Shown here one piece after another: positions 46,076 to 62,543 of a stretch of 64,000 nt of DNA (the stretch's first letter is position 1; each line of letters opens with the position of its first letter). The notes under the pieces were generated by a model. That model ran no database searches. It was given only the letters and a program-made list of their open reading frames with translations, and was not told where the DNA came from. This stretch comes from an uncultured Gemmatimonadales bacterium (GTDB lineage: Bacteria > Gemmatimonadota > Gemmatimonadetes > Longimicrobiales > RSA9): positions 1,024,001 to 1,088,000 of the forward strand of contig CAVUKA010000001.1 in the NCBI GenBank assembly GCA_963741945.1, given 5' to 3'. Both the position numbers and the translations under genes were made by a program.

Positions 46076-47098
46076 TCAGGTGGGAGTCACCACGCTCCGG
46101 ATGGATGCCCCGCTGCGCAGGAAGTCGAACGCGTCGTCGATCTCGTCCAGGGTGAAGCGGCGGTTCACCAGTTCGGTGACCCTGACACGGCCCTGGCGCA
46201 CGAGATCGATGACGCGCGGGTAGTCCACCGGCCGGCACCCCAGCGATCCCACGATCTCGAGCTCCCGGAACATGACCCGGCCGGCGTTGAGCTCCATGGC
46301 TTTCGGGCTGTAGCCCACGAAGACCACGCGCCCGCCGGTCTTCACCGCGTCCACGGCCAGCGCCTGCGTGTCGGGGCGACCCACGGCCTCGAACGCCACG
46401 TCGGCGCCGCCATCCGTGAGCGCGCGGAGCGCCTTGTCCGGGCGCTCCACGCTGTTCGGGTTCAGCGTGGCCTCCGCGCCCAGGCGCTCGGCCCACGCCA
46501 GCTTCTCGGGCGACACGTCCACGCCCACGACGCGGGCGCCCACCACGGCGGCCATCTGCACGACGTTCAGTCCGACCCCGCCACACCCCACCACCACCAC
46601 CCGGTCACCCGGCCGGACGCGGCCGCGGTTCATCACCGCGTGGAACGGGGTGGTGAGGGCGTCGGCGATGATGGAGCCCTCCACGAGCGGGATCTCGTCC
46701 GGGAGTCGGAACACGTCCCGTGCGGGGACGGCGACGTACTCGGCGTACCCTCCGTCGATGTTGTTGCCCAGCATGATCCCGTTCCGGCAGATGTTCTCGC
46801 GGCCCGTCCGGCATGCATCGCAGTGGCCGCACGACAGCACCGCCGGGAGGAGCACGTGATCGCCCTCCAGCAGCCGCCCCGTCGGGTCGGGGCTGGCCAG
46901 CGTGCCCGCGATCTCGTGGCCGAGCACCATCGGCGGATTCTTGAAGGTGGGCGTGCCGTGGTCGAGGTAGTGGAGGTCGGTGTGGCACACCCCGCAGGCC
47001 GCCACCTTCACGAGCACCTCGCCGGCGCCCGGCTCCGGCACGGGGATGTCCTCGATGGTGAGCGGGCGGTTGGCGCCATGGAAGAGAGCGGCCTTCAT
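46076..47098 (-). CDS. had: 6-hydroxycyclohex-1-ene-1-carbonyl-CoA dehydrogenase (Zn-dependent MDR)
   Basis: CGVCHTDL, GHE, CGHCDAC..GRENIC, ADALTTPF, LGCRPVDYP; last gene of the bcr operon. Confidence 0.8.
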   Translation of the reverse strand: MKAALFHGANRPLTIEDIPVPEPGAGEVLVKVAACGVCHTDLHYLDHGTPTFKNPPMVLGHEIAGTLASPDPTGRLLEGDHVLLPAVLSCGHCDACRTGRENICRNGIMLGNNIDGGYAEYVAVPARDVFRLPDEIPLVEGSIIADALTTPFHAVMNRGRVRPGDRVVVVGCGGVGLNVVQMAAVVGARVVGVDVSPEKLAWAERLGAEATLNPNSVERPDKALRALTDGGADVAFEAVGRPDTQALAVDAVKTGGRVVFVGYSPKAMELNAGRVMFRELEIVGSLGCRPVDYPRVIDLVRQGRVRVTELVNRRFTLDEIDDAFDFLRSGASIRSVVTPT

Positions 47099-47361
47099 CG
47101 GGGCATCCTCGTGTAGACAACGCGAAAGAGGGAGAGGGCGAGCGTGCACCCGGCGCACTCGTGCGCCAGGTCATCGTCCTCCAGGGGCTCGAGCAGCACC
47201 TCCCGACCCACCGAGCGGTAGAGCGCCGCCATCTCCCCAAGACGGGGCGGGGCGCCGATGAAGCGTCGCGTCCAGCCGGCCCGCGCCAGGACCTCGTCGC
47301 GCTCCCGGACGCGCGCGCTGGCGGCCGGCCCGATGTCGAGCGCGGGCACCGGCGCGCTCAC
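47095..47361 (-). CDS. Small conserved-looking CxxC protein within the bcr operon
   Basis: 88 aa, GWTRRFIGAPPRLGEMAALYRSVGREV...ECAGC...FRVVYTR; coupled on both sides (GTGA and ATGA overlaps). Confidence 0.7.
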   Translation of the reverse strand: MSAPVPALDIGPAASARVRERDEVLARAGWTRRFIGAPPRLGEMAALYRSVGREVLLEPLEDDDLAHECAGCTLALSLFRVVYTRMPR

Positions 47362-48179
47362 GCGGCCGCGGCCTCGGCGTCCTCGGCTTCGAGCTTCTCC
47401 AGCCGGCGCCGTGCGAGGATCGCGGCGCCGATTGCGCCGGTGTACTGGACCAGCGGCTCGGGCGGCACGTTGACGCCCTCCGCCAGGTGCTCGCGCATGA
47501 CGCGCACCATGGTGGGAAAGCGCATGATCCCGCCCACCAGCGTGAACTCGGGCTCCATCTGCACGCGCTTCATGAGCCGCACGCTCTTCTCGATGAGCGA
47601 CTCCATGGCGCCCAGCATGATCTCGCCGGGCTGGCTCCCGTTGCTCACGTGATTGATCACCTCCGACTCGGCGAACACCGCGCAAACTCCGCTGATGGGC
47701 ACCGACGCCTGCGCGCCCTGGACCAGCATCCCGATCTCCTCGAGGCCATAGCCGAGATAGCGGGCCGTCTTCTCCAGGAACGCGCCCGTGCCCGCGGCGC
47801 ACTTGTCGTTCAGACGGAACGAGCGGACCTTCCCCGCGTCATCGACGCGCATCGCCTTCATCGTCTGCCCGCCAATGTCCAGCACCGTGCGGGTCGACGG
47901 AAAGAACCAGCGCGTGCCCCACGACTGCGCCGTCAGGTCGGTGGCCTGGACGTCCCGGAACGCCACCTGGTTGCGGCCGTAGCCGGTGGTGGCGGTGTAG
48001 ACCACGTCCGCGGCCGTCACGCCCGCCTCGGCCAGCGCGGAATCCAGCGCCGCGCGCGCCGCCGCTTCCAGGCGATATCCGGTCGGCACCATGCTCCGGG
48101 CCAGCAGCTGGCCGGCCTCGTCCAGGATCGCGGCCTTCGTGTACGTCGAGCCGACGTCCACTCCCACCGTGCAGGTCAT
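47358..48179 (-). CDS. Class I benzoyl-CoA reductase ATP-binding activase subunit (BcrD/BzdP-like)
   Basis: [43 protein letters not shown]. Confidence 0.85.
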
Positions 48180-49042
48180 GCCACCTCCCGCGCTGTGGCG
48201 CAGCCCCGGCCCGCATCGCCGTCCGCGGCCGCACCGGTGAGATCCCCCGCCGGGATGAGCGCTCCCTCCGCCCGCTCGAGCGCGAACAGGGCCGCGCCCA
48301 GAGCGCCGATGAAGTGGGACTCGGCCCCCACGTTCATCTCCGTGCCGAGCAGCTCGTTCAGCACGTGCACCATGGCCGGGTTCTTCGTCACCCCGCCCGT
48401 GAAGGTCACTTCCTCCTCCACGCCCACCCGCTTGAGGAGACCGAACGAGCGCTTGGCGATGGACTGATGCACGCCCAGCAGGATGTCCTCGAGCTTCCGG
48501 CCGCGCGCCAGCCACGACAGCACTTCCGACTCCGCGAATACGGTGCACGTGGTGCTGATCGGCACCGGCCGCCGGCCCCGGAGCGCCGTGGGCCCGAGGT
48601 CCGCCAGGTCCAGCTCCAGCGCCGCCGCCGCCGACTGGAGGAAGCGGCCGGTGCCCGCCGAGCACTTGTCGTTCATGCAGAAGTCCAGCACCTGGCCGCC
48701 GGCCTGCACCCGGATCGCCTTGGTGTCCTGGCCACCCATGTCCAGCACGGTCCGCGTGCCGGGGAACATCTCCGCCGCCCCGCGGGCGTGGCACACGATC
48801 TCCGTCACCTGCGTGTCGCCGAACTCCACCTTGTAGCGGCCGTACCCCGTGCCGATGACGAAGTCCACGTCGCGCCGCGCGAGCCCGGCCTCGGCCAGCG
48901 CCAGCGCGAACGCGTTCTCCGCGGCCTCCACCACGTTTGCGCCCGTGTCGATGAGGCTGCGCCCGACGATGCGACGGTCGCCGTCCACCACCACGGCCTT
49001 GGTCTGGGTCGAACCGACATCCACTCCGCCCGCGTGTCTCAT
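48176..49042 (-). CDS. Class I benzoyl-CoA reductase ATP-binding activase subunit (BcrA/BzdQ-like)
   Basis: [51 protein letters not shown]. Confidence 0.85.
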
Positions 49043-50382
49043 GCGACCTCCTCCCTTGCGGCGGCACCGCTGCCGGCGATCGCGCCGTTCATCCGCAGCT
49101 TGCGACTCTCCAGCCCCTCGAAGAACGCGTCGATGCGGTTCTTCAGCTGCGCTTCCGAGACCACGCGCTTGTCCATCATGTCGCTCTCGATGTAGAGGGC
49201 CAGGACATCGCGCTCGGCCAGGAGCACCCGCCGGCTGTCGGCCAGGCTCGTCGAGACCGTGCGGCAGCTCTTCACGGGGTGGTAGACCACGCCGTCCGCG
49301 CCGTAGCGGTCCACCGCTTCCAGGAGCAGCCGGTCCTGGAAGAGCATGGCGTCGGTGGCCCGGCGCACGCTGCGCAGGACTCCTTCGGCCAGGCTCACCA
49401 GCGGGCGCGACAGGTCATACTCGAAATCCAGGTCCAGGCCGCCGGAGGCGAACCACAGGTAGGTGGAGCTCACGAATGCGCCGCCCCACTCGCTGAACAT
49501 TGCGTGGAAGCGCGAGAAGATCGGATAGCAGGGGACGCCCACGAAGATCAGGCGGTGCCGCTCGGGCGTCTCACCCAGGGCCCCGCGGCCCTCGGCCAGG
49601 CGCAGCTCCAGCTCCTCGGCCAGGTCGCGGAAGTAGTCCGCGCCCTCCTGCGTGCCGCGCAGCGCGTTCGCCACACCCAGGTACATGGTGCCCTCGAGCA
49701 CCGCGTCGAACGCGGCGGGGGCGCGGGCGTTCAGCGCCAGCACGCGGCGGTAGTGCCGGCCCATCTCGTTGGCGTGGCCCAGCACCTCGCGAAAGCGGTC
49801 GATGTCGAAGCGCCTGCCCGTGAGCGACTCCAGCACCTGGATGAGCTCCCGCAGCTGGTTCTCCACGTACGAGAGGTCCGCGGCCGAGCCGACGCCCGTG
49901 GCGCTGTCCAGGACCGAGCGCGACTGCGGCACGTCCACCGTGAAGACCGGGACGTCGTACATCCGCTCCCAGATCTCGGCCCATTTGAGGTAGGTGTTGC
50001 ACGCGTTCGTCAGCACCGCGATGGACGGTGGCGGGATCATTCCGCGCGGGTGCTCGCCGTTGCGGCGCTGGAGCGCATAGTCGGCCTTCACGTAGCCGCA
50101 CACGTCCGGGGAGAAGCCTTCGTCCTCGGCCTGGCTCAGGTACCCGTCCGAGACCTTCTTCACCGCCGTCTGGAGCGAGTTGATCTCGGGGAAGACCGTG
50201 TGCAGGCCGAACGTGCGCAGGATCTCCGTGAGACTCCCCATGACGAAGACATACGCGGCCTGCTCCCCGGCCGAGTGGGCGTGCGTGAGCTCCTCATACC
50301 ACCGGTCGAACAGCTGCCTGCCGTGCCGGAAGGCGCGTCCGTGGATGAGCTCCGAAGTCACTGGATTCATGGGCCGCCTCAT
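49039..50382 (-). CDS. bcrB: Benzoyl-CoA reductase subunit B (2-hydroxyacyl-CoA dehydratase family)
   Basis: [54 protein letters not shown]; start 50382 or 50370. Confidence 0.8.
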
Positions 50383-51572
50383 TCGAACAGCAGGTTCTCG
50401 ACGAAGGTCTCGAGCTGGATCTGCAGGTGATCGTACGCCGTCATGTTCTCCTCGAACTCCGTCACGAAGTACGGGATCTTCTCCCGGTCCAGCGCCTGTG
50501 AGTACGCCACCTGCTCGTCCAGGCCGGGCTCGCACATCTTGGCCGCGGCCACGATCGCCGCCTCCGCCGAGGCCGCGCGGATGCGGCGAAGCAGCATCTG
50601 CTCCTTCGGCTTCCGGAGGTCGTGCTGGACCGGGCTGTACGACGATCGCTCCAGGTACGCCTCCGCCAGCCTGCCCACGGGATCCCCCGCCAGATCCACG
50701 TCCTCGGTGATCCAGCGCAGGCCGATCAGGAGGTCGTCATCCACCACGTAGACGAACTGCGCGATGGAGCGGAGCAGGTCGAGCGGCGGCTGCTCGCAGA
50801 AGCCGCCCTCGAACACCACGCGCATGCGGTCCTGCCGGCGGGCGTCACGCTCCCGGATGCGGGGAATGAGCGCGCGCAGGAGGTGATTGTGCTCCTCGCG
50901 CGTGACCAGCCCCGCCAGCGCCACCAGCGCGTACGCCTCGTCCACCGGCAACCGCCACGGCTCCTCCCGCTTGATGGTGTAGAGCTCCCGCAGCAGACGA
51001 CGATTCTCATTGAACACTGCGATGGCATCGCGGATCTCGTCGTCGCCCACGGTGCGGCCGACCACCGCTTCGATCTCGACCAGCACGCGTCGGTACTCCG
51101 CGGTCAGGAACTCGGCCGAGAAGCGGGAGTTGGGGTTCTGCGGGAAGTACAGGATCTGCGCGGGCGTGCTCACGTTCCGCTCCCAGATCCCGGCCAGGTT
51201 GCGAGCCACGTCGCAGATCGGGTGGGTGACGAACAGATCCGGCACCAGCGTCCCGTTCATGGCCAGCTCGAGCGTGGTCCGCGGAATGGAGCAGATGGCG
51301 GAGCCGAAGCGAGAATCGGCTTCCCGGCGATCCACCTGGCCGCCGCGGATCTTCACCGGGAGCATCCCCGCCGCGTGGGCCAGCTCTTCGGGGAAGTAGA
51401 CCTGGAAATGGCCCAGCACCTTGCCGCCACCCTCCCGCCACTTCCGCACGGTTGGGTACTCGACGTCCTCCACCACCTCGCGGCAGCGGGCCAGCACGTG
51501 GTCGAGCGGGTCCGAGAGATCGATGTCCAGCAACCGCTCGGGGGGTGGGATCTCGCGCCTGGGTGTCGCCAT
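50379..51572 (-). CDS. bcrC: Benzoyl-CoA reductase subunit C
   Basis: VYFPEELAHAAGMLP, ICSIPRTTLEL, ICDVARNLAGIW, GGFCEQPPL, KMCEPGL. Confidence 0.8.
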   Translation of the reverse strand: MATPRREIPPPERLLDIDLSDPLDHVLARCREVVEDVEYPTVRKWREGGGKVLGHFQVYFPEELAHAAGMLPVKIRGGQVDRREADSRFGSAICSIPRTTLELAMNGTLVPDLFVTHPICDVARNLAGIWERNVSTPAQILYFPQNPNSRFSAEFLTAEYRRVLVEIEAVVGRTVGDDEIRDAIAVFNENRRLLRELYTIKREEPWRLPVDEAYALVALAGLVTREEHNHLLRALIPRIRERDARRQDRMRVVFEGGFCEQPPLDLLRSIAQFVYVVDDDLLIGLRWITEDVDLAGDPVGRLAEAYLERSSYSPVQHDLRKPKEQMLLRRIRAASAEAAIVAAAKMCEPGLDEQVAYSQALDREKIPYFVTEFEENMTAYDHLQIQLETFVENLLFE

Positions 51573-51573
51573 G

Positions 51574-52341
51574 CTATGCGTCGCTCCAGACCGGCGCGCG
51601 CTTCTCCATGAACGCCGCCAGTCCCTCGTGAGGATCGTGCAGGGCCATCAGCTCGTCGAGGTACAGCGCGTCCGCACCCGCCAGCGCCGCCGACAGCGGG
51701 CGGTCCAGCCCCTCGAGCACGGCGCGCTTGGCCAGCGCCAGCACCGGCCGACTGAGCCCGGCGAGCGGCGCCACGTACTCGCTCACGGCCTCGCCGAACG
51801 CGTCCGCCGGGAGCACGGCCGTGACCAGACCCATCACCTGCGCCTCCTCAGCCAGGATGGTCCGGCCGGTCAGCACCAGGTCCAGCGCCCGCTGCACCCC
51901 CACCCGGCGGGGGAGGAGCGCGGCCGCCGCCGGGGGAAAGACGCCGAGGCGGATCTCCGGCTGGCCAAGCTTGGCGCCGGAACGCGCCAGGACCACGTCG
52001 CAGGCCAGCGCCAGCTCGAGGCCGCCCCCCAGCGCGGCGCCGTTCAGCGCCGCCACGACAGGGAGGTCCACCGCCAGCAGCGCACGGATGGCGCGGGAGA
52101 ACGACTCGATCATCCCCCCCACGCGCTCGGTGGTGTGGTCTGCCACGTCCACCCCGGCGCAGAACGCGCTGCCCTCGCCCGTGAGCACCACTGCGCGTGT
52201 CGCCGGATCCGCATTTGCGACCCCCACTGCCCCGGCCAGCTCGTCCAGCATCTCCGTGGTCAGGACGTTCAGCGGAGGACGGTTCAGGACCACGCGGGCG
52301 ATTGCGGTGCCGAAGTCGACGCGAAGGTGCCGGTACGCCAC
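51574..52341 (-). CDS. dch: Cyclohexa-1,5-diene-1-carbonyl-CoA hydratase (crotonase family)
   Basis: LNRPPLNVL, FCAGVDVADH, LGGGLELA, GQPEIRLGVFPP, YLDELM..D..EGL.AF; directly upstream of bcrC. Confidence 0.8.
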   Translation of the reverse strand: MAYRHLRVDFGTAIARVVLNRPPLNVLTTEMLDELAGAVGVANADPATRAVVLTGEGSAFCAGVDVADHTTERVGGMIESFSRAIRALLAVDLPVVAALNGAALGGGLELALACDVVLARSGAKLGQPEIRLGVFPPAAAALLPRRVGVQRALDLVLTGRTILAEEAQVMGLVTAVLPADAFGEAVSEYVAPLAGLSRPVLALAKRAVLEGLDRPLSAALAGADALYLDELMALHDPHEGLAAFMEKRAPVWSDA

Positions 52342-52342
52342 T

Positions 52343-53452
52343 TCACCCTCCCGCCGTGGCTTTCGCGGCATCCCCGGTTTCGACCGTCTCCACGTCGACT
52401 CCGTCGGTCCCCAGCCCGGCCCCGCACGCGCCACAGAACTGGAAATCGGCTGGAATCCCTTCCGCGCCGCACGCCGGACAGTCACGGTTCGGCGCGCCCC
52501 ACAGGAATTCGCTGGAGCCCCCGCTCGCCGCGCGCTCGCGGAGCTCCATGTAGCGCGGCTTCCGCTTCTGAACGAAAGCGCGCATTCCCTCCCACGGCTC
52601 GAGGGAGGAGTAGTGGAGCGCCAGCCAGTCGCCCGCATGGCCCACGGTCTGGCTCCAGCTGAGCTCCTTCCAGAAGTTCACCTGCTGCTTCGTGTAACGC
52701 GTGCACTCCGGGAACTGCTGCAGCAGCACCTGAACCAGCTCGTCCACCGCCTCGTCCAGCTTCTCCAGCGAGATCGCGTAGCCGTCCTCTGCGTTCTGTG
52801 CCCTCGCGATCTGTTCCGGCGACGCCCCGTCGATGAACGCTCCGTCCTTCACCACGCTCGGCACGACCCGGTTCACCAGCCCCCAGTCCAGGCATTGCCG
52901 CGGCGGGATCCGGCCGTTGACCATGAGGATCTCGCGGGCGCGGCGGTCGCCGACCAGGAGCGGAAGCCACTGCGTGGCACCGCCGGCCGCCACGCTCCCG
53001 ACGCGCGTCCCTACCTGGCCGATGTAGGCGTGCTCGGCCATCACGGCGAGGTCGCACGCCATCTGGCTCTCGTTGCCTCCGCCGACGGCCATGCCGTTCA
53101 GGCGCGCGATCGTGGGCTTCCCCAGTTGAACGATGCTTTCGATATACTCCCGGAACAGCCGCATGTATTTCCAGTAGTCTCGCGGCCGTTGCGTGTACTC
53201 GGCCTCGTACTCCTTCACGTCGCCGCCCGTGCAGAACGCCTTCGTCCCCGCGCCCGTGTAGACCACCACCCCCACCCCATCGTCGAACGCCGCGTCATGG
53301 AACGCGGTGGTCAGCTCACGCAGCGCTTCCGTGGAGTACGCGTTGTAGTTGTGGGGACGGTTCAGCGTGACGCGCGCCACCCAGTCGGCCTTCTCGTACC
53401 GGATCTCCCGGAAGTCGTACGACTCGGCGGGACGCGGCTCAAACTTCGGCAT
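52343..53452 (-). CDS. oah: 6-oxocyclohex-1-ene-1-carbonyl-CoA hydrolase with C-terminal zinc ribbon
   Basis: YNAYST, AFCTGGDVKEY..Y...P.DY..YMRLF, NGMAVGGG, GGATQWLP; tail CPACG...FCGACG. Confidence 0.8.
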   Translation of the reverse strand: MPKFEPRPAESYDFREIRYEKADWVARVTLNRPHNYNAYSTEALRELTTAFHDAAFDDGVGVVVYTGAGTKAFCTGGDVKEYEAEYTQRPRDYWKYMRLFREYIESIVQLGKPTIARLNGMAVGGGNESQMACDLAVMAEHAYIGQVGTRVGSVAAGGATQWLPLLVGDRRAREILMVNGRIPPRQCLDWGLVNRVVPSVVKDGAFIDGASPEQIARAQNAEDGYAISLEKLDEAVDELVQVLLQQFPECTRYTKQQVNFWKELSWSQTVGHAGDWLALHYSSLEPWEGMRAFVQKRKPRYMELRERAASGGSSEFLWGAPNRDCPACGAEGIPADFQFCGACGAGLGTDGVDVETVETGDAAKATAGG

Positions 53453-53503
53453 GCTCGGCTCCTTGTCAGACCATGGCACGACGGCCACCTGGGAAAACGA
53501 AAG

Positions 53504-54370
53504 TCACGAAACGGACGACCGCTCCTCACCCGCCACACCCACGGCGGATCCGGCGGCTTCGAAGCGCGGCTCCACGAACCGGTCGGCCGGCTCCGCCAAC
53601 AGCTCGTGGTAATAGTTGAACAGGCTCAGCGCGCACTCCCCCGCCCAGTCCTCCGGCTGCAACGCCCCGGGGAGGAACGGGTCCTGGAGCGGGAACTCCC
53701 GGTACTCGTGCACCAGCCGGAAGCGCCGGACGTACGCGTCCCGCGGCTCGATCGACCCCGGACCCTCCTCCTTCAGCGCCACGCACGCGTCCAGATGACG
53801 CTCTATGAACGCCTCGTAGCGCGCGTTCAGCCCGGCCAGGTCCCAGCAGCGGCCCACCAGCTCACGGGCGTCGCCAAACCCCAGGTGCGGTCCGCGGAAC
53901 ACCTCCACGTACTCCCTCACTTCCAGATCGTCCGCGATCTCACGCACAGGGCCGACGACATCGTGCGGCGTAATCCACAGCCCGTTCCCCAGCGACCCGA
54001 ACCCGAGCCACTCCAGGCGAACCCGCAGGCGGTCCCGCTGCCCCCGCTGCTCCTCCGGAATCGAATACGCCAGCAGCGTCCACTCCCCATCCCACCCCTC
54101 CGCCCCACGCGGCCGGTAGATCCGCGTCTCCCCTTCCTCCAGCAGCCGTCGGCCCCGACCCGTCAGCGCATAGTAGCTGCGACGACCCTCGCGCTCCGCT
54201 TCCAGCCACCCCTTCCCCACCATCCGCGACAGCACCGTCCGCACGTTCGTCTCGCTCAGCCCCAGCGGCTCCAGCAGCCCGATCAGGCTCCCCACCCACA
54301 CCGGTGATGGCCGGTGCAGCAGGAAATCGCCGAACAGCGTGAACACCAGGTCCTGGGGTCGTGCGGCCAT
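53504..54370 (-). CDS. paaX: PaaX-family transcriptional regulator
   Basis: LVFTLFGD, VRTVLSRM..KGWL, GRRSYYALT..G, WDGEW, LEWLGFG, CWDL, DPFLP..L.P.DW.G. Confidence 0.85.
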   Translation of the reverse strand: MAARPQDLVFTLFGDFLLHRPSPVWVGSLIGLLEPLGLSETNVRTVLSRMVGKGWLEAEREGRRSYYALTGRGRRLLEEGETRIYRPRGAEGWDGEWTLLAYSIPEEQRGQRDRLRVRLEWLGFGSLGNGLWITPHDVVGPVREIADDLEVREYVEVFRGPHLGFGDARELVGRCWDLAGLNARYEAFIERHLDACVALKEEGPGSIEPRDAYVRRFRLVHEYREFPLQDPFLPGALQPEDWAGECALSLFNYYHELLAEPADRFVEPRFEAAGSAVGVAGEERSSVS

Positions 54371-54373
54371 CTC

Positions 54374-54438
54374 TTGTCACAAATGGTTAACGATCGTAGT
54401 CTTGCTGCAATACATTGCCGGCCCGACGCCGGTGTCAA
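54374..54438. promoter_or_regulatory. AT-rich divergent promoter/operator region between paaX and maoC
   Basis: Short palindromes TTGTcACAA (54374-82), ACGATCGT (54390-97), GCAATacATTGC (54407-18); TTGACA on the minus strand at 54433-38. Confidence 0.5.
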
Positions 54439-54506
54439 GGGTCTTCATGCGGAGGCCCCGGGAACATCGGCGGACCGAGCGCCCTCGCGGATCCGGGAGG
54501 CGGACG

Positions 54507-54977
54507 ATGACGGAGGAATCCCTGACGTTCGATGACTTCGAGGTGGGGCGCACCTACCGGACGGAGAGCCGTGTGGTGACGCAGGCGGACGTGGAGGCGT
54601 TCGCGGCGGTGTCGGGGGATGCGAACCCGCTGCACCTGGACGAGGCGTACGCGGCGCAGACGGTGTTCGGCGGCCGGGTGGCGCACGGTGCGCTGGGGCT
54701 GGCGGTCGCGACGGGGCTGCTGAACCGGCGTGGGCTGACGCGGGGGACGTTGATCGCCTTTCTGGGGCTGACCTGGGACTTCGTCGCCCCGCTGGTGCCG
54801 GAGTCGGAGGTGCACGTGGCGCTGGAGGTATCATCGAAGCGGGTTTCGCGCCGCGCGGACCGGGGCGTGGTGGCCTTCTCGGCGGAGCTGCGGTCGGGCT
54901 CTGAAGTGATCCAGGCCGGGGAGCTCCGGTTCCTGGTGCGGCGGCGCGGAGCGGCCGGTGGCGTGGCGGGGACGTAG
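54507..54977 (+). CDS. MaoC/PaaZ C-terminal-like hot-dog dehydratase
   Basis: FDDFEVG, FAAVSGDANPLHLD, RVAHG; GGAGG RBS. Confidence 0.85.
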   Translation: MTEESLTFDDFEVGRTYRTESRVVTQADVEAFAAVSGDANPLHLDEAYAAQTVFGGRVAHGALGLAVATGLLNRRGLTRGTLIAFLGLTWDFVAPLVPESEVHVALEVSSKRVSRRADRGVVAFSAELRSGSEVIQAGELRFLVRRRGAAGGVAGT

Positions 54978-55164
54978 ACGTCCCTGCTCTCGCGCGGGCG
55001 GGCGCGCGGGTGCCCGCGGGCGAAACCCCTACGCGTCAAGGGGGGAAACTCCCGATACATGGCGCAGGTAAATCAGTGAATCCCCGATTGTACGGCTGAG
55101 CGTGCGGGGTAGCTTTTCAGGTGCAGGGCGGGGACACCCGGGCAGCAACTCCGGAGCGAGCCGG

Positions 55165-58100
55165 ATGATGGATAAAGGGGCCGCAGCGCGGCCAGAGAGG
55201 CAGGAGCGCGCGTCGGCGGTGCGTGAAGCCGGCGGGGCATCCAGGGGGCGGCGCCTCCTGCTTTCGGGGAACCAGGCCATCGCCCGTGGGGCGTGGGAGG
55301 CGGGGGTGCGAGTGGGCGCAGGCTACCCCGGCACGCCGAGCACGGAGATCCTGGAAGCGCTGTCGCACCTGGATGGCGTCGACTGCGAGTGGTCGCCGAA
55401 CGAGAAGGTGGCGCTGGAAGTGGCCGTGGGCGCGTCGCTGGGGGGCGCGCGGGCGCTGGCCACGATGAAGCACGTGGGCGTGAACGTCGCCGCCGACCCG
55501 CTCTTCTCGGCCGCGTACATGGGTGTGAACGGCGGGCTCGTGGTCGTGAGTGCCGACGACCCCGGCATGCACTCGTCGCAGAACGAGCAGGACAACCGTC
55601 TATTCGCCCGCCACGCCCGGCTTCCGCTGCTGGAGCCGTCCACGCCGGCGGACGCGCGTCGGTTCACCACGGCGGCGTTCGCGGTCTCGGAGCGCTACGA
55701 CACGCCGGTGCTGCTGCGGACCACGACTCGCCTGAGTCACGGTACCGGCCCGGTCGAGGCGGGTGAGCGGGAAGCAGTGGGGCTGCGGGCATACCACAAG
55801 GACCGCCAGAAGAACGTGGTCCTCCCGGCGCACGGCCGCGTCCGCCACCGCTGGATCGAGGAGGAGCGGATGCCGGCGCTCGCCGCGGAAGCGGAGCGGT
55901 GGGCGGAAGCGGAGCCGGGCGACGGCGACGTCGCCTTCATCACCGCGGGCATTCCCTACCTGTACGTCCGGGAGGCCTTCCCGGCGGCCCCGGTGCTCCG
56001 CCTCGGGATGACGTATCCGCTCCCGGAGATCGCGGTCCGGCGGTTCGCGGAGGAGCACGCGGGGAAGCGGCTCTACGTGGTGGAGGAGCTGGAGCCGTTC
56101 CTGGAGGAGCAGATCCGGGCGCTCGGGCTGGCGCTGGAAGCGCGCACCTGGCCCCGGTACGGCGAGCTGACCGTGCGGCTCCTGCGTCGCGCGGCAGGGG
56201 CTCCCGAGGAGGGCACCGCGGAGGAGACGGCCGCGAACGCGAAGGGTGCGGTCGGTGATGCGCCCCCGGTGCTGCCGTCGCGACCGCCGGCGCTGTGCCC
56301 CGGGTGCGCCCATCGTGGCGTGTTCCACGCCCTGGGACGCATGGACGCCATCGTGAGCGGCGACATCGGCTGCTATACGCTGGGTGCGCTCGCGCCGCTG
56401 GACGCCATGGACGCGTGCATGAACATGGGGGCCTCCATCGGCATGGCGCATGGCATGGAGAAGGTGCTGCCGCCGGATGAAGGGAAGCGTGTGGTGAGCG
56501 TGATCGGCGACTCCACGTTCTACCATTCGGGCGTGACGGGACTGATGGACGTGGTCTACAACCGGGGCAAGGGGACGGTGGTGGTGCTGGACAACCGGAC
56601 CACGGCCATGACGGGGCATCAGGACCACCCGGGCACGGGCCACACGCTCGGCAACGCCGAAGCGCCGCGCATCGACATCGGCGGGATCGCGCGGGCGGTG
56701 GGCGTGGACGACGTGCGCAGCGTGGACCCGTACGATCTCCTGGGCGCGTGGCGCACGCTGGACGACGCGACCCGCACGCAGGCGCCCTCGGTGGTGGTGG
56801 CCGGGAAGCCGTGCGTGCTGAAGGAGAAGGTCTCGTTCGGCGATCCGGTGTTCCTGGACGCGGACCGGTGCACCGAGTGCTTCGCGTGCACGCGGCTGGG
56901 GTGCCCGGCCATCGAGGAGAGCGATGGGCGTCTCGCGGTGAACGACCTGCTCTGCAACGGCTGCACGCTGTGCCAGCAGGTCTGCGCCGACTGCAACGCG
57001 GGGATCGACGTCTCGCTCATGCTCGAGCTGGTGGACCAGGGGCGGCTCTCGGACGCGCTCGAGCTGGTGCTGCGCTCGAACCCGCTGCCCGCCGTCTCCG
57101 CGCGCGTCTGTCCGCACCCCTGCGACCACGACGTGAACGCCCTCGGGTTCCCGCAGGCGGCTACCTATGCGGCCCGGCACCCGTCGCTCGTGGAGCGCTT
57201 CCCCGACGGCGCCAGGAAGATTTCGGTGCGTGCGGTGGAGCAGTTCCTGGGCGACTGGGCCATCGAGAACTACCCGGCCGACGCGCTTTCCCCCGCGGAG
57301 GAGATGGGCCGCTCCGTGGCGGTGGTCGGATCCGGGCCGGCCGGCCTGTCGGCGGCGTGGCACCTCCGGCGCAAGGGGTGGCGCGTCACCGTGTTCGAAG
57401 CCGACGAAGCCCCGGGCGGCATGCTGCGGAGCGGGATCCCCCCGTTCCGGCTGGCGCGGGAAGTACTGGACGCAGAGCTGGGCCGGTTCACCGCTATCGG
57501 CATCGAGTTCCGCACGGCGGCCAGGATCGGTCGGGACATCACGGTGGCAGAGCTGTCCGAGGAGCATGACGCCGTCATCATCGCAGTGGGCCGGCACGCG
57601 CCGCGGACCATCCCGCTGGAAGGGGCCGAGGCGTACGGCTCGTCCGTGCTGGGCGGCCTGGAATTCCTGCGGCGTTTCAACGCAGGCGAGGCGGTGCCGC
57701 TGGGTCGCCGTGTCACGGTGATCGGAGGGGGGAACACGGCCATCGACTGCGCGCGCGCCGCGCGCCGGCTCGGTGCCACCGTGGACGTGGTGTACCGGCG
57801 GACAGAAGCCGAGATGCCGGCCATCCCCGACGAGGTGGAGGAAGCGCGGGAGGAAGGCGTGACGTTCCGGTTCCAGAGGAGCCCCGTGCGGGCGCTGGGA
57901 GAGGGCGGTCGCCTGACGTCGCTGGAAACCATCGCCATGGCGCAGGGCGACCCGGACGAGAGCGGTCGGCGGCGCCCGGACCCGGTGGCGGAGAGCGAGG
58001 AGGTCGAGCCCTGCGACGCGGTGATCCTGGCCGTGGGCGAGGACACCGACCTGGCGTTGCTGGCAGGGAGCGGCATCCGGGCGGGCGACCGGATCGACGT

Positions 58101-58254
58101 CAACTTCGCCGGTGCCACATCGGTGCCCGGCGTGTTCGCGTGCGGTGATGCGGCGTTCGGCCACGGCACGGTGACGCAGGCGGTGGCCACGGGCCGCCGC
58201 GCGGCCGAGCTGGCGAGCAACCCGTTGAAGAAAGGGGCGACCCGTGAGCGATAA
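55165..58254 (+). CDS. iorA: Indolepyruvate:ferredoxin oxidoreductase alpha subunit fused to a GltD-like FAD/NAD(P)H oxidoreductase
   Basis: GNQAIARG, YPGTPSTEI, MKHVGVNVAAD, SSQNEQD, LCPGCAH, GDIGCY, GDSTF, two ferredoxin motifs; then NPLPAVSARVCPHPC, GSGPAG, IGGGNTAIDCAR, YRR, GDAAFG. Confidence 0.85.
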   Translation: MMDKGAAARPERQERASAVREAGGASRGRRLLLSGNQAIARGAWEAGVRVGAGYPGTPSTEILEALSHLDGVDCEWSPNEKVALEVAVGASLGGARALATMKHVGVNVAADPLFSAAYMGVNGGLVVVSADDPGMHSSQNEQDNRLFARHARLPLLEPSTPADARRFTTAAFAVSERYDTPVLLRTTTRLSHGTGPVEAGEREAVGLRAYHKDRQKNVVLPAHGRVRHRWIEEERMPALAAEAERWAEAEPGDGDVAFITAGIPYLYVREAFPAAPVLRLGMTYPLPEIAVRRFAEEHAGKRLYVVEELEPFLEEQIRALGLALEARTWPRYGELTVRLLRRAAGAPEEGTAEETAANAKGAVGDAPPVLPSRPPALCPGCAHRGVFHALGRMDAIVSGDIGCYTLGALAPLDAMDACMNMGASIGMAHGMEKVLPPDEGKRVVSVIGDSTFYHSGVTGLMDVVYNRGKGTVVVLDNRTTAMTGHQDHPGTGHTLGNAEAPRIDIGGIARAVGVDDVRSVDPYDLLGAWRTLDDATRTQAPSVVVAGKPCVLKEKVSFGDPVFLDADRCTECFACTRLGCPAIEESDGRLAVNDLLCNGCTLCQQVCADCNAGIDVSLMLELVDQGRLSDALELVLRSNPLPAVSARVCPHPCDHDVNALGFPQAATYAARHPSLVERFPDGARKISVRAVEQFLGDWAIENYPADALSPAEEMGRSVAVVGSGPAGLSAAWHLRRKGWRVTVFEADEAPGGMLRSGIPPFRLAREVLDAELGRFTAIGIEFRTAARIGRDITVAELSEEHDAVIIAVGRHAPRTIPLEGAEAYGSSVLGGLEFLRRFNAGEAVPLGRRVTVIGGGNTAIDCARAARRLGATVDVVYRRTEAEMPAIPDEVEEAREEGVTFRFQRSPVRALGEGGRLTSLETIAMAQGDPDESGRRRPDPVAESEEVEPCDAVILAVGEDTDLALLAGSGIRAGDRIDVNFAGATSVPGVFACGDAAFGHGTVTQAVATGRRAAELASNPLKKGATRER

Positions 58255-58981
58255 GACGAGGGAGTCGGGATCCGGGGACCCGCAGGTCGCGGCCACGGCC
58301 GTGGAAGAAGCCGGCGCGGACGCCGCAGCTCGCTCCGAGCGGGTGTCCGACCGCAGCGGCGGCCTCCCCCCCACCGGCCACGGCGATGTGATGAACATCG
58401 TGCTTGCGGGCGTTGGCGGTCAGGGCTCCGTCCTCGCCACCCGGGTGCTGGCCACGGCGGCGGCGATCGCGGGGCACCAGGTCGTGACCTCGGAAGTGCA
58501 CGGCATGTCGCAGCGCGGCGGAACGGTTCTGACCACGGTGCGCTTCGGCGACTCGGTTCTGTCCTCCTCCATCCCGGAGGGCGAAGCCGACTTCCTGGTG
58601 GCCTTCGAGCGCCTCGAGGCCGCGCGGCACCTGTCCCTGGTGGAACCCGGCGGGATCGTGCTGGTGAACGACCAGCGCATCGCGCCGAGCATCGAATCGC
58701 TGAAGACCGCCGGCTACCCCCGCGACCTCGAGCCGAGTGCGGAGGCGCGCGGCATCACGCTGCTGACCTTCCCGGCGCTGGCGCTGGCCAGGGAGCTGGG
58801 AAACGAGAAGCTGTCCAGCACGATCATGCTGGGCGCGCTGTCGAACTACCTGTTCATTGCCCGGGAGCAGTGGCTGGAAGCGATCCGGCGGACGGTCCCG
58901 CCGAGGACGGTGGAAGCGAACGAAGCCGCGTTCGACACGGGCGCCGAGTGGATGGTGGGCCCCGCGGCGTTCAGCTTCTGA
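58244..58981 (+). CDS. iorB: Indolepyruvate:ferredoxin oxidoreductase beta subunit
   Basis: GVGGQG, SEVHGMSQRGG, FERLEAAR; start may instead be ATG 58391. Confidence 0.85.
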   Translation: MSDKTRESGSGDPQVAATAVEEAGADAAARSERVSDRSGGLPPTGHGDVMNIVLAGVGGQGSVLATRVLATAAAIAGHQVVTSEVHGMSQRGGTVLTTVRFGDSVLSSSIPEGEADFLVAFERLEAARHLSLVEPGGIVLVNDQRIAPSIESLKTAGYPRDLEPSAEARGITLLTFPALALARELGNEKLSSTIMLGALSNYLFIAREQWLEAIRRTVPPRTVEANEAAFDTGAEWMVGPAAFSF

Positions 58982-60077
58982 CCCTGGAGATCGGCGCCTC
59001 GTAGTCCCTCGCCCTCTCCATCCCGGCCAGCACCCGCGCGGCCCCTTCGGCCAGCGCCCGCAGCTCGTCTTCGCCGGGGTAGACCCGGACGTCCGCGATC
59101 CAGGTCAGCGCATCCGCGAGCCCGCCCGTCAGCGCCCGGCTGCGCGCCATTCCACCAGTGAGGAGAACGGCGTCGACGCGGCCGCCGAGCGCGGCGGCCA
59201 TGGCGCCGATCTCCTTGCGGATCTGGTAGGACATGGCGAGGAGAACGACGCGAGCATGATCGTCGCCGGCGGCGATGCGCGCTTCCACCTCCCTGAGGTC
59301 CCGGGTGCCGAGATAGGACACGAGACCGCCCTCGCGGAAGAGCCGGCGGTCCGCCTCGGCCATGGTCCAATCCTCCTCCAGGGCGCGCTCCATGAGGCGC
59401 ATCACCGGCACGCTGCCGGCCCGCTCGGTGGAAAACGGCCCTTCCTCCCGGGGGTTGTTCACGTCGACCATGCGCCCGCCCCGGTGTGCCGACACGCTCA
59501 CGCCGCTCCCGAGATGGGCCACCACCAGGCGCAGCTCGTCGTACGAACGACCCACCTCGGCGGCGTAGCGCTTCGCCACGGCCTTGGTGTTGAGCGCGTG
59601 GGAGAGGCAGACGCGATCCAGCCCCGCCAGTCCCGAAAGCCGGGCCACGTCATCCCACTCGTCCACGCTCACGGGGTCCACGATGAATGCCGGGCACCCG
59701 GCCTCGTCGGCCAGTCGGCGAGCCAGGAACGCGCCCAGATTGGACGCGTGCTCGCCCCGCCCCGCCGCGCGCAGGTCCTCCAACATGGCATCGGTCACGC
59801 GGTACGTCCCGCTGGCCAGCGGGCGCAGCAGTCCACCCCGCCCCACCACCGCGTCCATGTCGCCAGGTTCCACGCCGTGCCGTGACAGGGCCCCGCGCAC
59901 CGCATCCAGGCGCATGTCCTGCTGCTCCAGGATCGGCCGCCCACGGAACCCCGCCAGCACCGCGTCATCGTGGGTGGCCGCGTGCTCGAACACCACCGCG
60001 TCGCCGGAGAAGACCGCCAGCTTCGTGCTGGTCGACCCGGGATTGAGAGCCAGAATCAAGAACTCCTCCGCTGCCAT
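58971..60077 (-). CDS. buk: Butyrate/branched-chain carboxylate kinase
   Basis: LNPGSTSTK, VGRGGLLRP, HASNLG, DPVSVDE, HALNTKAVA, GPFSTERAG, YPGEDE. Confidence 0.9.
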   Translation of the reverse strand: MAAEEFLILALNPGSTSTKLAVFSGDAVVFEHAATHDDAVLAGFRGRPILEQQDMRLDAVRGALSRHGVEPGDMDAVVGRGGLLRPLASGTYRVTDAMLEDLRAAGRGEHASNLGAFLARRLADEAGCPAFIVDPVSVDEWDDVARLSGLAGLDRVCLSHALNTKAVAKRYAAEVGRSYDELRLVVAHLGSGVSVSAHRGGRMVDVNNPREEGPFSTERAGSVPVMRLMERALEEDWTMAEADRRLFREGGLVSYLGTRDLREVEARIAAGDDHARVVLLAMSYQIRKEIGAMAAALGGRVDAVLLTGGMARSRALTGGLADALTWIADVRVYPGEDELRALAEGAARVLAGMERARDYEAPISRVRS

Positions 60078-60108
60078 GACGCGTCCCCGCCTCCCTCGCA
60101 TGCCCGCC

Positions 60109-61038
60109 TCATCCCGCCCGTCCGACCAGTGCACCCAGGGCGATGGAGTGCAGCTTGTCTTCCGCGCTTTCAACGCGCGACGGGATCAGGATCGGCACCG
60201 CGGCGCCCGTGACCACGTGGGCCGTGATCGAACCGCCGAAGTACTTGACCCCTTTGCCCAGGATGTTCCCCGCATCGATCCCGGGGGTGACCATGATGTC
60301 GGCGGCCCCCGCCACCGGACCCGTGATCCCCTTCGCCCGGGCTGCCGAAGGGAGCAGCGCGTTGTCGAGGGCCAGCGGCCCGGCGACGTCGGCGTTCGGC
60401 AGCGCCCGCGCAGCCCACTCGGCGGTGTCGCGGGCGAGCACGGTGGAGGGGACGGCATCGGTGACCACTTCGGTGGCGCTGAGGAGAGCCACGCGCGGCC
60501 GCTCGTAGCCGAGGGCGCGGAACACCGCCACGGCGTTGGCCACGATCTCCCGCAGCGCCGCCGCATCCGGGGCGGGCGTGATCCCGCCGTCCGTGACCCC
60601 CACCAGCCGCACTGAGCCGGAGAGCGCGTCCTCGTAGAGGAGAACATCGGAGAGCAGTCGGCCCGTCCGCAGCCCGCGCTCCCGACGGAGCGCCGCCTTC
60701 AGGAGCTGGTCCGTCCGCAGCGCACCTTTGAGCAGGATGCCCACCTCTCGCGTCACGGCCAGCTCCACCGCCGCGGCCGCGGCCTCCTCCGGAGTTGCAG
60801 CCCTCACCCAGCGGGCGTGGTCCAGCCCGCGGATCGACCCGGCCTCGATGACCGCGCGGATCCGATCCGCATCGCCCACCAGGACGGGCGAGGCGATCCC
60901 CTCCGTCGCGGCCGCCCCGACCGCGGCCAGCGCCGACGCGCTGTCAGCGGCCACTACCGCCACGGAAACGGGCCGGGATTCCCTGGCCCGTGCCCGGAGC
61001 TCAGCGAAGGAACGGATCGGTGCTGTGAGCGTCGGCAT
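60109..61038 (-). CDS. ptb: Phosphate butyryl/acyltransferase
   Basis: LKGALRT, LLSDV, TDGG, GPLALDNA, GNILGK, SRVESAEDK; upstream of buk. Confidence 0.85.
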   Translation of the reverse strand: MPTLTAPIRSFAELRARARESRPVSVAVVAADSASALAAVGAAATEGIASPVLVGDADRIRAVIEAGSIRGLDHARWVRAATPEEAAAAAVELAVTREVGILLKGALRTDQLLKAALRRERGLRTGRLLSDVLLYEDALSGSVRLVGVTDGGITPAPDAAALREIVANAVAVFRALGYERPRVALLSATEVVTDAVPSTVLARDTAEWAARALPNADVAGPLALDNALLPSAARAKGITGPVAGAADIMVTPGIDAGNILGKGVKYFGGSITAHVVTGAAVPILIPSRVESAEDKLHSIALGALVGRAG

Positions 61039-61205
61039 GCCGGCAATATGCCCGCGCGGGGAATCGGGTGCCAGTCAGGCCCGGTCTACCGGCGGGTAAG
61101 GGATTTCCCCGCCCCGTCGCGGTGAATCCTCCTGATTGCCGCTCGCACGCACGGGAGCTTAGGCTGCCAGCACGGCCAGAACCGAACCAAGCGAGGGTAC
61201 CTCTT

Positions 61206-62543
61206 ATGGGCCGGACACGGACATTGATTCTTGGAGCCGCCGGACGCGACTTCCACAACTTCAACGTACTTTACAGGAACGACCCCGACACCGAGGTGGT
61301 GGGATTCACAGCCGAGCAGATCCCCCACATCGACGATCGCCGCTATCCGCCCGAGCTCGCGGGCGAGCTTTACCCGAACGGGATTCCGATCCACCCGGAG
61401 CGCCAGCTGGAAGAGCTGATCGCCGAGCTCGATGTCGAGCGCTGCATCATGGCGTACTCGGACGTCTCCTACGCCTACGTCATGGGGCTGGCGGCCCGGG
61501 TCAATACGGCTGGCGCGGATTTCACAATGCTGGGCGCCGAGCCCACCATGGTGAAGTCCACCAAGCCGGTGGTGGCCGTCTGCGCATCCCGCACGGGCGC
61601 CGGAAAGAGCCAGACCAGCCGCGCCGTGGTCCGGCTGCTGCGCGACGCGGGGAAGAAGGTGGCGGTGATCCGGCACCCCATGCCGTACGGCGACCTGGTC
61701 AAGCAGCGCGTCCAGCGCTTCGCGACCGAGGAGGACCTTGTTCGGCACGAGGTCACCATCGAGGAGCGCGAGGAGTACGAGCCGCACATGGCGGCGGGCA
61801 GCGTGGTGTTCGCCGGCGTGGACTACGAGGCGATCCTGCGCGAGGCGGAGAAGGAAGCGGACGTCATCCTCTGGGATGGCGGCAACAACGACTTCTCCTT
61901 CTACAAGCCGGACGTGTACATCACCCTCGTGGACCCGCACCGCGCCGGGCACGAGCTCAGCTATTATCCCGGTGAGATCAACGTCCGTCTGGCGGACGCG
62001 GTCCTGGTGAACAAAGTTGATACGGCGTCCATGGACGATGTGCTCCAGGTCGAGGACAACGTCCGGAAGGTGAATCCGGGAGCGGTTCTCCTGGAAGGCG
62101 CTTCGCCTCTCTTCCTCGACGACCCGGACGTGCTCCGCGGACGTCGCGTCCTGTGCATCGAGGACGGGCCGACGCTGACGCACGGCGGGATGACCTACGG
62201 CGCCGCGGTGATCGGCGCGCGCAAGGCCGGCGCCGCGGAGCTGGTCGACGCTCGGCCGTTCGCCGTGGGCGAGATCGCGAGCACGTTCCAGCGCTATCCC
62301 GGAATCGGCACCCTGCTCCCCGCCATGGGGTACGGTGAGCAGCAGGTGAAGGATCTCGAGGCGACGCTGCGCAAGGCCGCCGAAGGTGGCGTCGAGGCCG
62401 TTGCCATCGGCACGCCCATCAACCTCGCGCGGCTCGTGGACATTCCGGTGCCGTACACGCGCGTCCGCTACGAGCTCCAGGTGATCGGGAGCCCGACCCT
62501 GCGTGACGTGCTGGCGCCGGTGCTCGGGACGTCGCCGAAGTAG
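61206..62543 (+). CDS. cDPG-synthetase-like P-loop NTPase, ArcE (arginine synthetase)-like
   Basis: ILGAAGRDFHNFN, QIPHID.R.YP.ELAG.LYP.GIPI, RTGAGKSQT, RHPMPYG, TIEEREEYE, WDGGNND, EDGPTLTHG. Confidence 0.7.
   Translation: MGRTRTLILGAAGRDFHNFNVLYRNDPDTEVVGFTAEQIPHIDDRRYPPELAGELYPNGIPIHPERQLEELIAELDVERCIMAYSDVSYAYVMGLAARVNTAGADFTMLGAEPTMVKSTKPVVAVCASRTGAGKSQTSRAVVRLLRDAGKKVAVIRHPMPYGDLVKQRVQRFATEEDLVRHEVTIEEREEYEPHMAAGSVVFAGVDYEAILREAEKEADVILWDGGNNDFSFYKPDVYITLVDPHRAGHELSYYPGEINVRLADAVLVNKVDTASMDDVLQVEDNVRKVNPGAVLLEGASPLFLDDPDVLRGRRVLCIEDGPTLTHGGMTYGAAVIGARKAGAAELVDARPFAVGEIASTFQRYPGIGTLLPAMGYGEQQVKDLEATLRKAAEGGVEAVAIGTPINLARLVDIPVPYTRVRYELQVIGSPTLRDVLAPVLGTSPK

Follow-up and report, generated by a model that had tools for sequence, protein, structure and literature searches.

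Several systems are known in which a 2-oxoacid:ferredoxin oxidoreductase (OFOR) works together with a flavoprotein, NAD(P)+ taking the place of ferredoxin, among them the pyruvate:NADP+ oxidoreductase (PNO) of Euglena and Cryptosporidium, the phenylglyoxylate:NAD+ oxidoreductase PadEFGHI, and the 2-oxoglutarate:NADP+ oxidoreductase of Azoarcus with BzdV. PNO uses a CPR-like flavin module, and the other OFOR systems of this kind use different flavin modules or separate subunits. Here we describe a fusion of iorA to a gltD-type flavoprotein gene in an uncultured Gemmatimonadales bacterium of the Longimicrobiales. The gene lies in a 64,000-nucleotide stretch of DNA, hereafter the window (G000:C1:1024001-1088000), which has a G+C content of about 70% and belongs to a 4.09 Mb genome in eight contigs. 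Together with the adjoining iorB it probably encodes a ferredoxin-independent, CoA-acylating 2-oxoacid:NADP+ oxidoreductase, whose acyl-CoA product would pass to the phosphate acyltransferase Ptb and the acyl kinase Buk for ATP formation. No description of an IorA-GltD fusion was found in Creative-Commons PMC papers or bioRxiv; the principle of pairing an OFOR with an NAD(P) flavoprotein is known, and no account of a splice that swaps one NfnL cluster for the IorA ferredoxin domain turned up in that literature.

The fusion gene spans 55165..58254 (+) from its ATG start (1029 aa), and an upstream GTG at 55102 gives 1050 aa; residue numbers are counted from this GTG. Fusion homologues of 985-1064 aa start around residue 22-50 of the open reading frame (ORF). 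The IorA part (residues 52-629; 55255..56988, +) matches TIGR03336 IOR_alpha with an E-value of 1.8e-194 and 647.4 bits over model positions 3-591 of 595, and it contains the domains by which an IorA is recognised, namely POR_N, TPP_enzyme_C and a C-terminal 8Fe ferredoxin-type domain with two Cys motifs. The GltD-type models PRK12771 (359.6 bits), gltA and gltD_gamma_fam cover the fusion from residue 613 or 629 to 1042, and Pfam adds Fer4_20 at residues 621-676 (model positions 24-83 of 113) and Pyr_redox_2 at 738-1031. The POR gamma-type subunit gene iorB, expected beside an iorA, follows at 58244..58981 (+); its conserved part begins at ATG 58391 and it matches PF01558 at E 2e-41. These matches bear out the sequence-only reading of a single ORF that joins a full IorA to a GltD-type Fe-S/FAD/NAD(P)H domain. 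Current automatic names of the homologues are 'indolepyruvate ferredoxin oxidoreductase alpha subunit' or 'FAD-dependent oxidoreductase'.

The fusion is not an assembly artefact. That explanation is ruled out by 96 of the 120 best listed homologues, which have at least 940 aa and the same set of domains as the fusion, by conservation across 97 sequences, and by a 412-nt Logan contig that crosses the junction (56801-57212) with one differing letter and no gaps. The Logan contig supplies the continuity across the junction that the sequence-only reading had left to be checked, although its run is possibly the sample behind the window assembly, in which case the contig is not independent support. 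No RNA run was listed as holding this stretch. The named source organisms of the homologues are Longimicrobiales, other Gemmatimonadota and Bipolaricaulota/Acetothermia. When homologues are clustered at 50% identity, this fusion (type 1) is represented by P0049 alone; among the best 150 representatives, another 33, with lengths of 980-1384 aa, are matched in both halves at 35-44% identity. A profile scan of genome contigs returned 80 loci, mainly with unfused IorA, among which were one type 1 fusion (L001) and one fusion of a second type (type 2, L025). On one metagenome contig (L147:463-1693) the GltD part of the fusion is broken over several frames, reflecting either a broken copy or sequencing errors.

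Conservation was assessed in 97 full-length sequences, comprising P0001 and 96 homologues, with 24 listed homologues shorter than 940 aa excluded. All 15 Cys residues of the fusion are unchanged in 97/97. Four of these, C399, C402, C424 and C571 (56296..56814, +), are by analogy the putative ligands of a [4Fe-4S] cluster close to the thiamine pyrophosphate (TPP). The Cys of the first ferredoxin motif, CTECFACTRLGCP (C590/C593/C596/C601; 56869..56907, +), and of the junction, CNGCTLCQQVCADC (C618-C631; 56953..56994, +), are invariant throughout the set. Within the junction, the second ferredoxin motif (C618/C621/C624/C628) leads directly into C631, which phmmer alignments with solved NfnL/GltD chains (4ylf_B, 9n5u_A and 2vdc_G) place at the Cys of the 'CP' motif, just as expected if the second IorA ferredoxin motif merges into the GltD N-terminal Cys motif, as had been proposed from the sequence. 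The same alignments uphold the proposed loss of the last Cys from the GltD CxxxC that follows CPHP: in the segment CPHPCDHDV (C670-V678; 57109..57135, +), C670 and C674 fall at proximal-cluster ligands, and V678 falls at the final Cys of CPxxCxxxC. Position 678 is V, T, I, R, L or A across the set and Cys in 0/97; position 666 is likewise never Cys.

Residue by residue, alignment to Thermotoga maritima NfnB (4ylf_B) and to NfnA of NfnABC (9n5u_A) equates C631 with Cys51, C670 with Cys90, E713 with Glu117 and V678 with Cys100, while C674 corresponds approximately to NfnB Cys96, with CPxxC spacing as in 9n5u_A. E713 lies in the motif V-E-Q-F (57238..57240, +) and is Glu in 96/97. In the portion of PMC7596348 available, Cys51/90/96 and Glu117 of NfnB bind the FAD-proximal cluster, and Cys39/42/47/100 the distal one. 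The fusion thus has the three Cys and one Glu of the NfnL proximal site (C631, C670, C674 and E713) and lacks the four-Cys distal set (NfnB C39, C42, C47 and C100), its N-terminal Cys being those of the IorA ferredoxin motif. Because position 678 is never Cys and C631/C670/C674/E713 are conserved, the distal cluster appears incomplete and the proximal one kept; the fusion family would retain the flavin-proximal cluster and has lost at least one distal-cluster ligand. An excerpt of PMC8097209 on dihydropyrimidine dehydrogenase (DPD) describes an electron route from FAD to the Gln-ligated nFeS2 and on to nFeS1, such that the FAD-adjacent cluster is the Gln/Glu-ligated one, and reports that GltS has Glu in place of the cluster-ligating Gln of DPD. 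The AF2 model of the fusion has a mean pLDDT of 82 and a pTM of 0.73, with block means of 74-93 for the junction residues 581-700. In 8Fe ferredoxins, the fourth Cys of each motif ligates the other cluster, so C628 would ligate the cluster of C590/593/596. In total, the predicted cofactors of the fusion are four [4Fe-4S] clusters, one FAD and one TPP.

The flavin module is similarly well conserved. The FAD-binding Rossmann motif GSGPAG (57328..57345, +), found within the Pyr_redox_2 and NAD_binding_8 matches, retains G743 and G745 in 97/97 and G748 in 96/97. The second, NAD(P) Rossmann motif GGGNTA and the downstream Y898-R899-R900 (57724..57801, +) were located by Pyr_redox and the 4ylf_B alignment, with Y898 and R899 present in 97/97 and R900 in 96/97. 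Hence GSGPAG, GGGNTA and YRR, the motifs of a GltD/NfnL flavoprotein, are each kept in 96-97 of the 97. The YRR of NfnB grips the 2'-phosphate of NADP, as stated in the part of PMC7596348 consulted, and its presence here points to NADP(H) use by the fusion. Among solved structures, the module comes nearest to the NfnL-like domains that NfnA contributes to NfnABC and StnABC, and next to NfnI-L, NfnB, GltD and DPD; the closest of all, NfnA (9n5u_A) of NfnABC, shares 42% identity with the C-terminal half of the fusion (Foldseek E 2e-41). The C-terminal half of the AF2 model superposes on NfnL-type chains, with a TM of 0.78 normalised to NfnI-L. Excerpts of PMC12018979 describe T. sibiricus NfnABC as having an NfnL-like domain whose non-bifurcating FAD accepts hydride from NADPH and feeds a [4Fe-4S] chain, and as having a Lys ligand at the FAD-proximal cluster of NfnA where NfnL has Glu. 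This non-bifurcating FAD therefore sets a precedent for an NfnL module that does no more than connect NADP(H) to an Fe-S chain.

The domains, the conserved ligands and the gene co-occurrence are observed directly; which cofactors the IorA-GltD/IorB enzyme binds, in which direction it runs, what its substrates are and whether it is specific for NADP are inferred. On sequence homology, electrons from TPP would enter the proximal [4Fe-4S] cluster (C399/C402/C424/C571), pass through the two clusters of the IorA 8Fe ferredoxin domain, and continue via the single retained NfnL-type [4Fe-4S] cluster (C631/C670/C674/E713) to FAD and NADP+. In this route, the distal cluster of GltD/NfnL would have been given up and the IorA ferredoxin domain would stand in its place, with C628 and C631, three residues apart, linking the two clusters in the manner of Cys47/Cys51 in NfnB. 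The acyl-CoA would then be converted to acyl-phosphate by Ptb and to the acid plus ATP by Buk, two enzymes co-inherited with the fusion. The 2-oxoacid/acyl-CoA couple lies near -500 mV and that of NADP at -320 mV; on these textbook values the oxidative direction is favoured. Arylpyruvates are the likely substrates, perhaps along with other 2-oxoacids derived from amino acids.

The genes that travel with the fusion were surveyed in an order sample of 101 genomes including G000, in which the unpublished G030, G078 and G002 count only among the genomes without finds. A full-length fusion is present in nine (G000, G096, G006, G066, G033, G054, G075, G090 and G087), and G084 carries a fusion piece ended by a contig edge; all ten fusion genomes belong to family f1. 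Buk was found in 11/101 genomes, comprising 10/10 fusion genomes and 1/91 others (G022). In tblastn comparisons of the window's proteins with stretches of about 20 kb, iorA-gltD, iorB, buk and ptb occur together in 9/9 Longimicrobiales-type loci (L111-L118 and L001). Beyond the sample, metagenome contigs bearing the junction motif show the fusion followed by iorB in 20/20. In the window, buk (58971..60173, -) encodes a butyrate-kinase family acyl kinase scoring 468.6 bits to NF002834 (cut-off 222), and ptb (60109..61038, -) encodes a PTA_PTB protein scoring about 224-232 bits to the phosphate butyryltransferase models, under their cut-offs. The Buk family match begins at residue 38 of its ORF and the family and tblastn matches generally near residue 36-40, and several buk relatives have a stop inside the first part of the ORF; translation of buk thus probably begins some 110 nt after the TTG of the ORF. 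Beside ptb, a 491-aa ORF at 61068-62543 (+) is kept in L111-L114 and L140; it has no family match at E 1e-10, only a weak cobW-like stretch.

Several points weigh against this reading. The fusion narrowly misses the TIGR03336 equivalog cut-off of 650.9, by 3.5 bits in a full-length match, and IorB and Ptb also score under their equivalog cut-offs. Substrate range and nucleotide specificity are read from family resemblance alone. The sample genomes are kin, with the fusion in seven genera, so that the co-occurrence counts are descriptive and overstate independence. Among the 20 metagenome loci, of which only eight are longer than 7 kb, buk is present in just two, and ptb-buk was not seen adjoining the fusion outside the high-GC lineage, where many loci are short. 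Lastly, of the three genera in which the fusion occurs together with genes resembling those for benzoyl-CoA reductase (BCR), two have them within 6 kb of each other, in differing arrangements (G000/G096 and G075). The interpretation favoured here, of a 2-oxoacid:NADP+ oxidoreductase feeding Ptb and Buk, would put this proximity down to chance or to membership of one catabolic island, with a residual hint of a local metabolic link in this genus.

The BCR-like genes form an island at 46076..53488 (-), whose best NCBIfam matches are benzoyl-CoA pathway models, all under their equivalog cut-offs. It comprises Oah-like (52343-53488), Dch-like (51574-52638), BcrC-like (50379-51572; 273.2 bits vs cut-off 421.15), BcrB-like (49039-50535; 204.5 vs 486.55), BcrA-like (48176-49042; 202.8 vs 578), BcrD-like (about 47358-48200; 141.9 vs 312.85) and Had-like (46076-47158) genes, all on the minus strand. 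Four subunit-like genes are thus present, and none reaches the equivalog score that would assign it to class I BCR. A 569-aa ATPase ORF at 47358-49067 (-) was dismissed as a high-GC artefact, as the BcrA-like and BcrD-like genes there lie in different frames. The first gene of the island encodes a PaaX-family regulator (53504..54370, -; TIGR02277 251.4 bits, cut-off 264.55), and a MaoC-like dehydratase gene lies alongside (54339..54977, +; true start probably later). When tblastn rows below 38% identity are dropped, the order MaoC | PaaX-Oah-Dch-BcrC-B-A-D-Had recurs in G021, G036, G039, G081 and G069, where the fusion was not found. Since PaaX and MaoC are kept with the island in its absence, they belong to the BCR island and not to the ior cassette; PaaX was accordingly dropped as a sign of a phenylpyruvate substrate. 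The island recurs in at least six genera of this bacterial family (loci including L149-L152 and L154).

The sequence-only reading had suggested a coupling of the fusion to this operon as a supplier of both aryl-CoA substrate and reductant. The protein has the parts that an NAD(P)-linked, CoA-acylating 2-oxoacid oxidoreductase would need (the TPP domains, the 15 invariant Cys, the FAD motif and the NADP motif with YRR); the coupling to BCR is not supported. In its present form the proposal is that the fusion makes aryl-CoA and passes low-potential electrons, from a 2-oxoacid or from NAD(P)H, to a ferredoxin-less class I BCR-like enzyme, which we regard as unlikely. It draws on the fusion start lying 3.6 kb from bcrC in G000 and its congener G096, and on G075, where the fusion lies 5.5 kb from BCR genes in another arrangement. 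Moreover, the window holds no ferredoxin-motif gene that could serve the BCR-like operon: a six-frame scan for the classical motif (CxxCxxCxxxC-type) found it in a coding-like frame only in the fusion ORF, a second match at 32635-33639 (-) having a GC3 of 0.63 vs about 0.9 for genes. This agrees with the earlier claim that the window lacks a ferredoxin gene, for a scan by motif as distinct from a full family scan of small ORFs. A table in PMC6849830 lists BzdV-type GltD-like oxidoreductases and MaoC-like genes alongside class I aryl-CoA reductase genes. With no match to PaaK or PaaA over cut-off in G000, arylacetyl-CoA could come from Ior. The two modules nevertheless co-occur poorly. BcrC-like genes are found in 16/101 genomes, comprising 4/10 fusion genomes (G000, G096, G075 and G090) and 12/91 others, so that most genomes with a BcrC-like gene (12 of 16) are without the fusion. 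The island is kept in five genomes without a detected fusion, and BCR genes occur in only two of the nine fusion loci (L111 from G096 and L116 from G075) and in 0/20 junction-motif metagenome loci, 12 of which are shorter than 7 kb; in G090 the modules sit on separate contigs, each with about 20 kb of unrelated flank. A fusion widespread without BCR, which the sequence-only reading had named as speaking against the coupling, is therefore what this 101-genome sample and the metagenome loci contain. No ferredoxin-motif ORF was found in the island loci of G021, G036, G039, G081 and G069, and because the island is without a ferredoxin gene in 7/8 loci examined, the missing ferredoxin is a general island trait and not one specific to the fusion-bearing genus. 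Away from this region, G000 also encodes a PFOR, two other OFORs and a small ferredoxin of 80 aa. The earlier 'aroyl-CoA' product is also imprecise: by family knowledge, IorAB-type enzymes convert arylpyruvate to arylacetyl-CoA, not to benzoyl-CoA; a PadBCD-type step was not looked for.

Other rivals concern the direction and branching of electron flow. The same gene set would serve an anabolic role, in which aryl or branched-chain acids are taken up, converted to acyl-CoA by Buk and Ptb, and turned into 2-oxoacids for amino-acid synthesis through NADPH-dependent reductive carboxylation by the fusion; some anaerobes do run IOR-type enzymes reductively. However, NADPH at about -320 mV cannot push a couple near -500 mV without extra energy, on textbook values, and the conserved cassette encodes no second, high-potential FAD exit, leaving this role very doubtful. 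Another rival is a branched or bifurcating enzyme that uses ferredoxin and NADP(H) together, through the NfnL-like FAD and an exposed ferredoxin-domain cluster, either oxidizing a 2-oxoacid to reduce both acceptors or using NADPH to drive low-potential electrons. The NfnL/GltD-class module, with a Glu-ligated proximal cluster as found beside the bifurcating FAD of NfnSL, is consistent with this idea, as are the retention of both ferredoxin-domain clusters and of R783, the Arg of the GIPxFRL motif, in 96/97. Yet in the parts of the sources available to us, the Glu ligand is also present in non-bifurcating GltD (PMC8097209), and the Arg motif in non-bifurcating NfnA (PMC12018979); since R783 is conserved in bifurcating and non-bifurcating relatives alike, it is uninformative on bifurcation. 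Nor was an NfnS/PyrK-like partner for a second FAD exit seen in the conserved neighbourhood, the rest of the genome not having been searched; bifurcation seems improbable. More speculative still is a combination of these ideas, in which the NfnL-type flavin and the ferredoxin domain would make up a branching electron path serving both ferredoxin partners and NADP(H), and, in the genera where the cassette lies beside the ferredoxin-less BCR island, act as a built-in low-potential donor or a bifurcating/confurcating hub for ring reduction; we give this little credence.

GltD-like genes also occur beside or within OFOR operons in G000 and in other lineages. On the lower-GC contigs L130, L137 and L142, a second OFOR operon stands just upstream of the fusion in the order gamma, GltD-like, alpha, beta (e.g. 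L130:7780-11260, -), and in these loci the GltD-like gene lies between the gamma and alpha genes, a frequent site of the delta (ferredoxin) subunit gene. A superoxide dismutase gene is found downstream of iorB in L130-type loci, and near the fusion in the metagenome locus L132 there is an ATP-grasp_5 gene, of the kind known from ADP-forming acyl-CoA synthetases. In G000, one GltD-like gene whose product ends in a 2x[4Fe-4S] domain (C3:659165-661578, -; 571-aa frame) precedes another OFOR alpha gene by 39 nt, and a similar GltD-ferredoxin gene is found at C6:165966-167645. G022, the sole Buk-bearing sample genome without a detected fusion, carries GltD-like, buk and ptb genes in a row (L157, G022:C9, 9514-13894), with no IorA-like gene nearby.

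If the proposed function is correct, the fusion would be a compact way for a bacterium without a ferredoxin economy to run a 2-oxoacid oxidoreductase of the oxygen-sensitive, ferredoxin-type class, the solution being an NADPH flavoprotein spliced onto the enzyme's own ferredoxin domain with one Fe-S cluster dropped. It would constitute a natural example of GltD/NfnL 'plug' modules grafted onto other Fe-S enzymes. The automatic names of such proteins would need correcting, and metabolic reconstructions of Longimicrobiales- and Bipolaricaulota-type organisms would have amino-acid oxidation yield NADPH, not reduced ferredoxin. The electron source of the family's BCR-like enzymes is not explained by the fusion.

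Compared with described systems, the fusion shares with IorAB (TIGR03336/TIGR03334) the domains of a complete IorA, the two ferredoxin motifs and an adjoining iorB. It differs in about 420 additional C-terminal residues with FAD and NADP sites, in a further cluster ligand separated by two residues from the last ferredoxin Cys, and in a predicted acceptor that is NADP+ and not free ferredoxin. To the PadE model of PadEFGHI, IorB scores only 36 bits (cut-off 300). With NfnL/GltD (4ylf_B, 5jca_L, 2vdc_G and 9n5u_A) it has in common the fold, the motifs for FAD and NADP, the YRR, and the proximal ligands (Cys3Glu), whereas it is without the distal cluster site (V678 for Cys100) and has an 8Fe ferredoxin domain fused directly upstream; unlike NfnA, which has Lys at this position, it has Glu (E713). 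The type 2 IorA-GltD-ferredoxin fusions, read here from eight representatives (P0133, P0135-P0138, P0145, P0170 and P0195) and from L025:9983-13540 (+), which encodes a 1186-aa protein in a Deferrisomatales metagenome-assembled genome, likewise unite a GltD-like module with the TPP domains of IorA in a single polypeptide, and their genes are followed by iorB. In contrast to type 1, their ferredoxin domains are C-terminal, CxxxC is intact, and Lys (LKRF) replaces Glu (VEQF), at 34-44% identity. They are about 1100-1190 aa long with a proximal-cluster Lys as in NfnABC, and in P0145 (1384 aa) IorB appears to be fused on too. The arrangement as a whole resembles DPD, where, in the section of PMC8097209 at hand, a GltD-like module likewise connects FAD through nFeS2 and nFeS1 to an 8Fe ferredoxin-like domain. 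DPD keeps both N-terminal clusters and receives its ferredoxin-like domain from the other subunit, whereas the fusion drops one cluster and carries its ferredoxin domain in cis.

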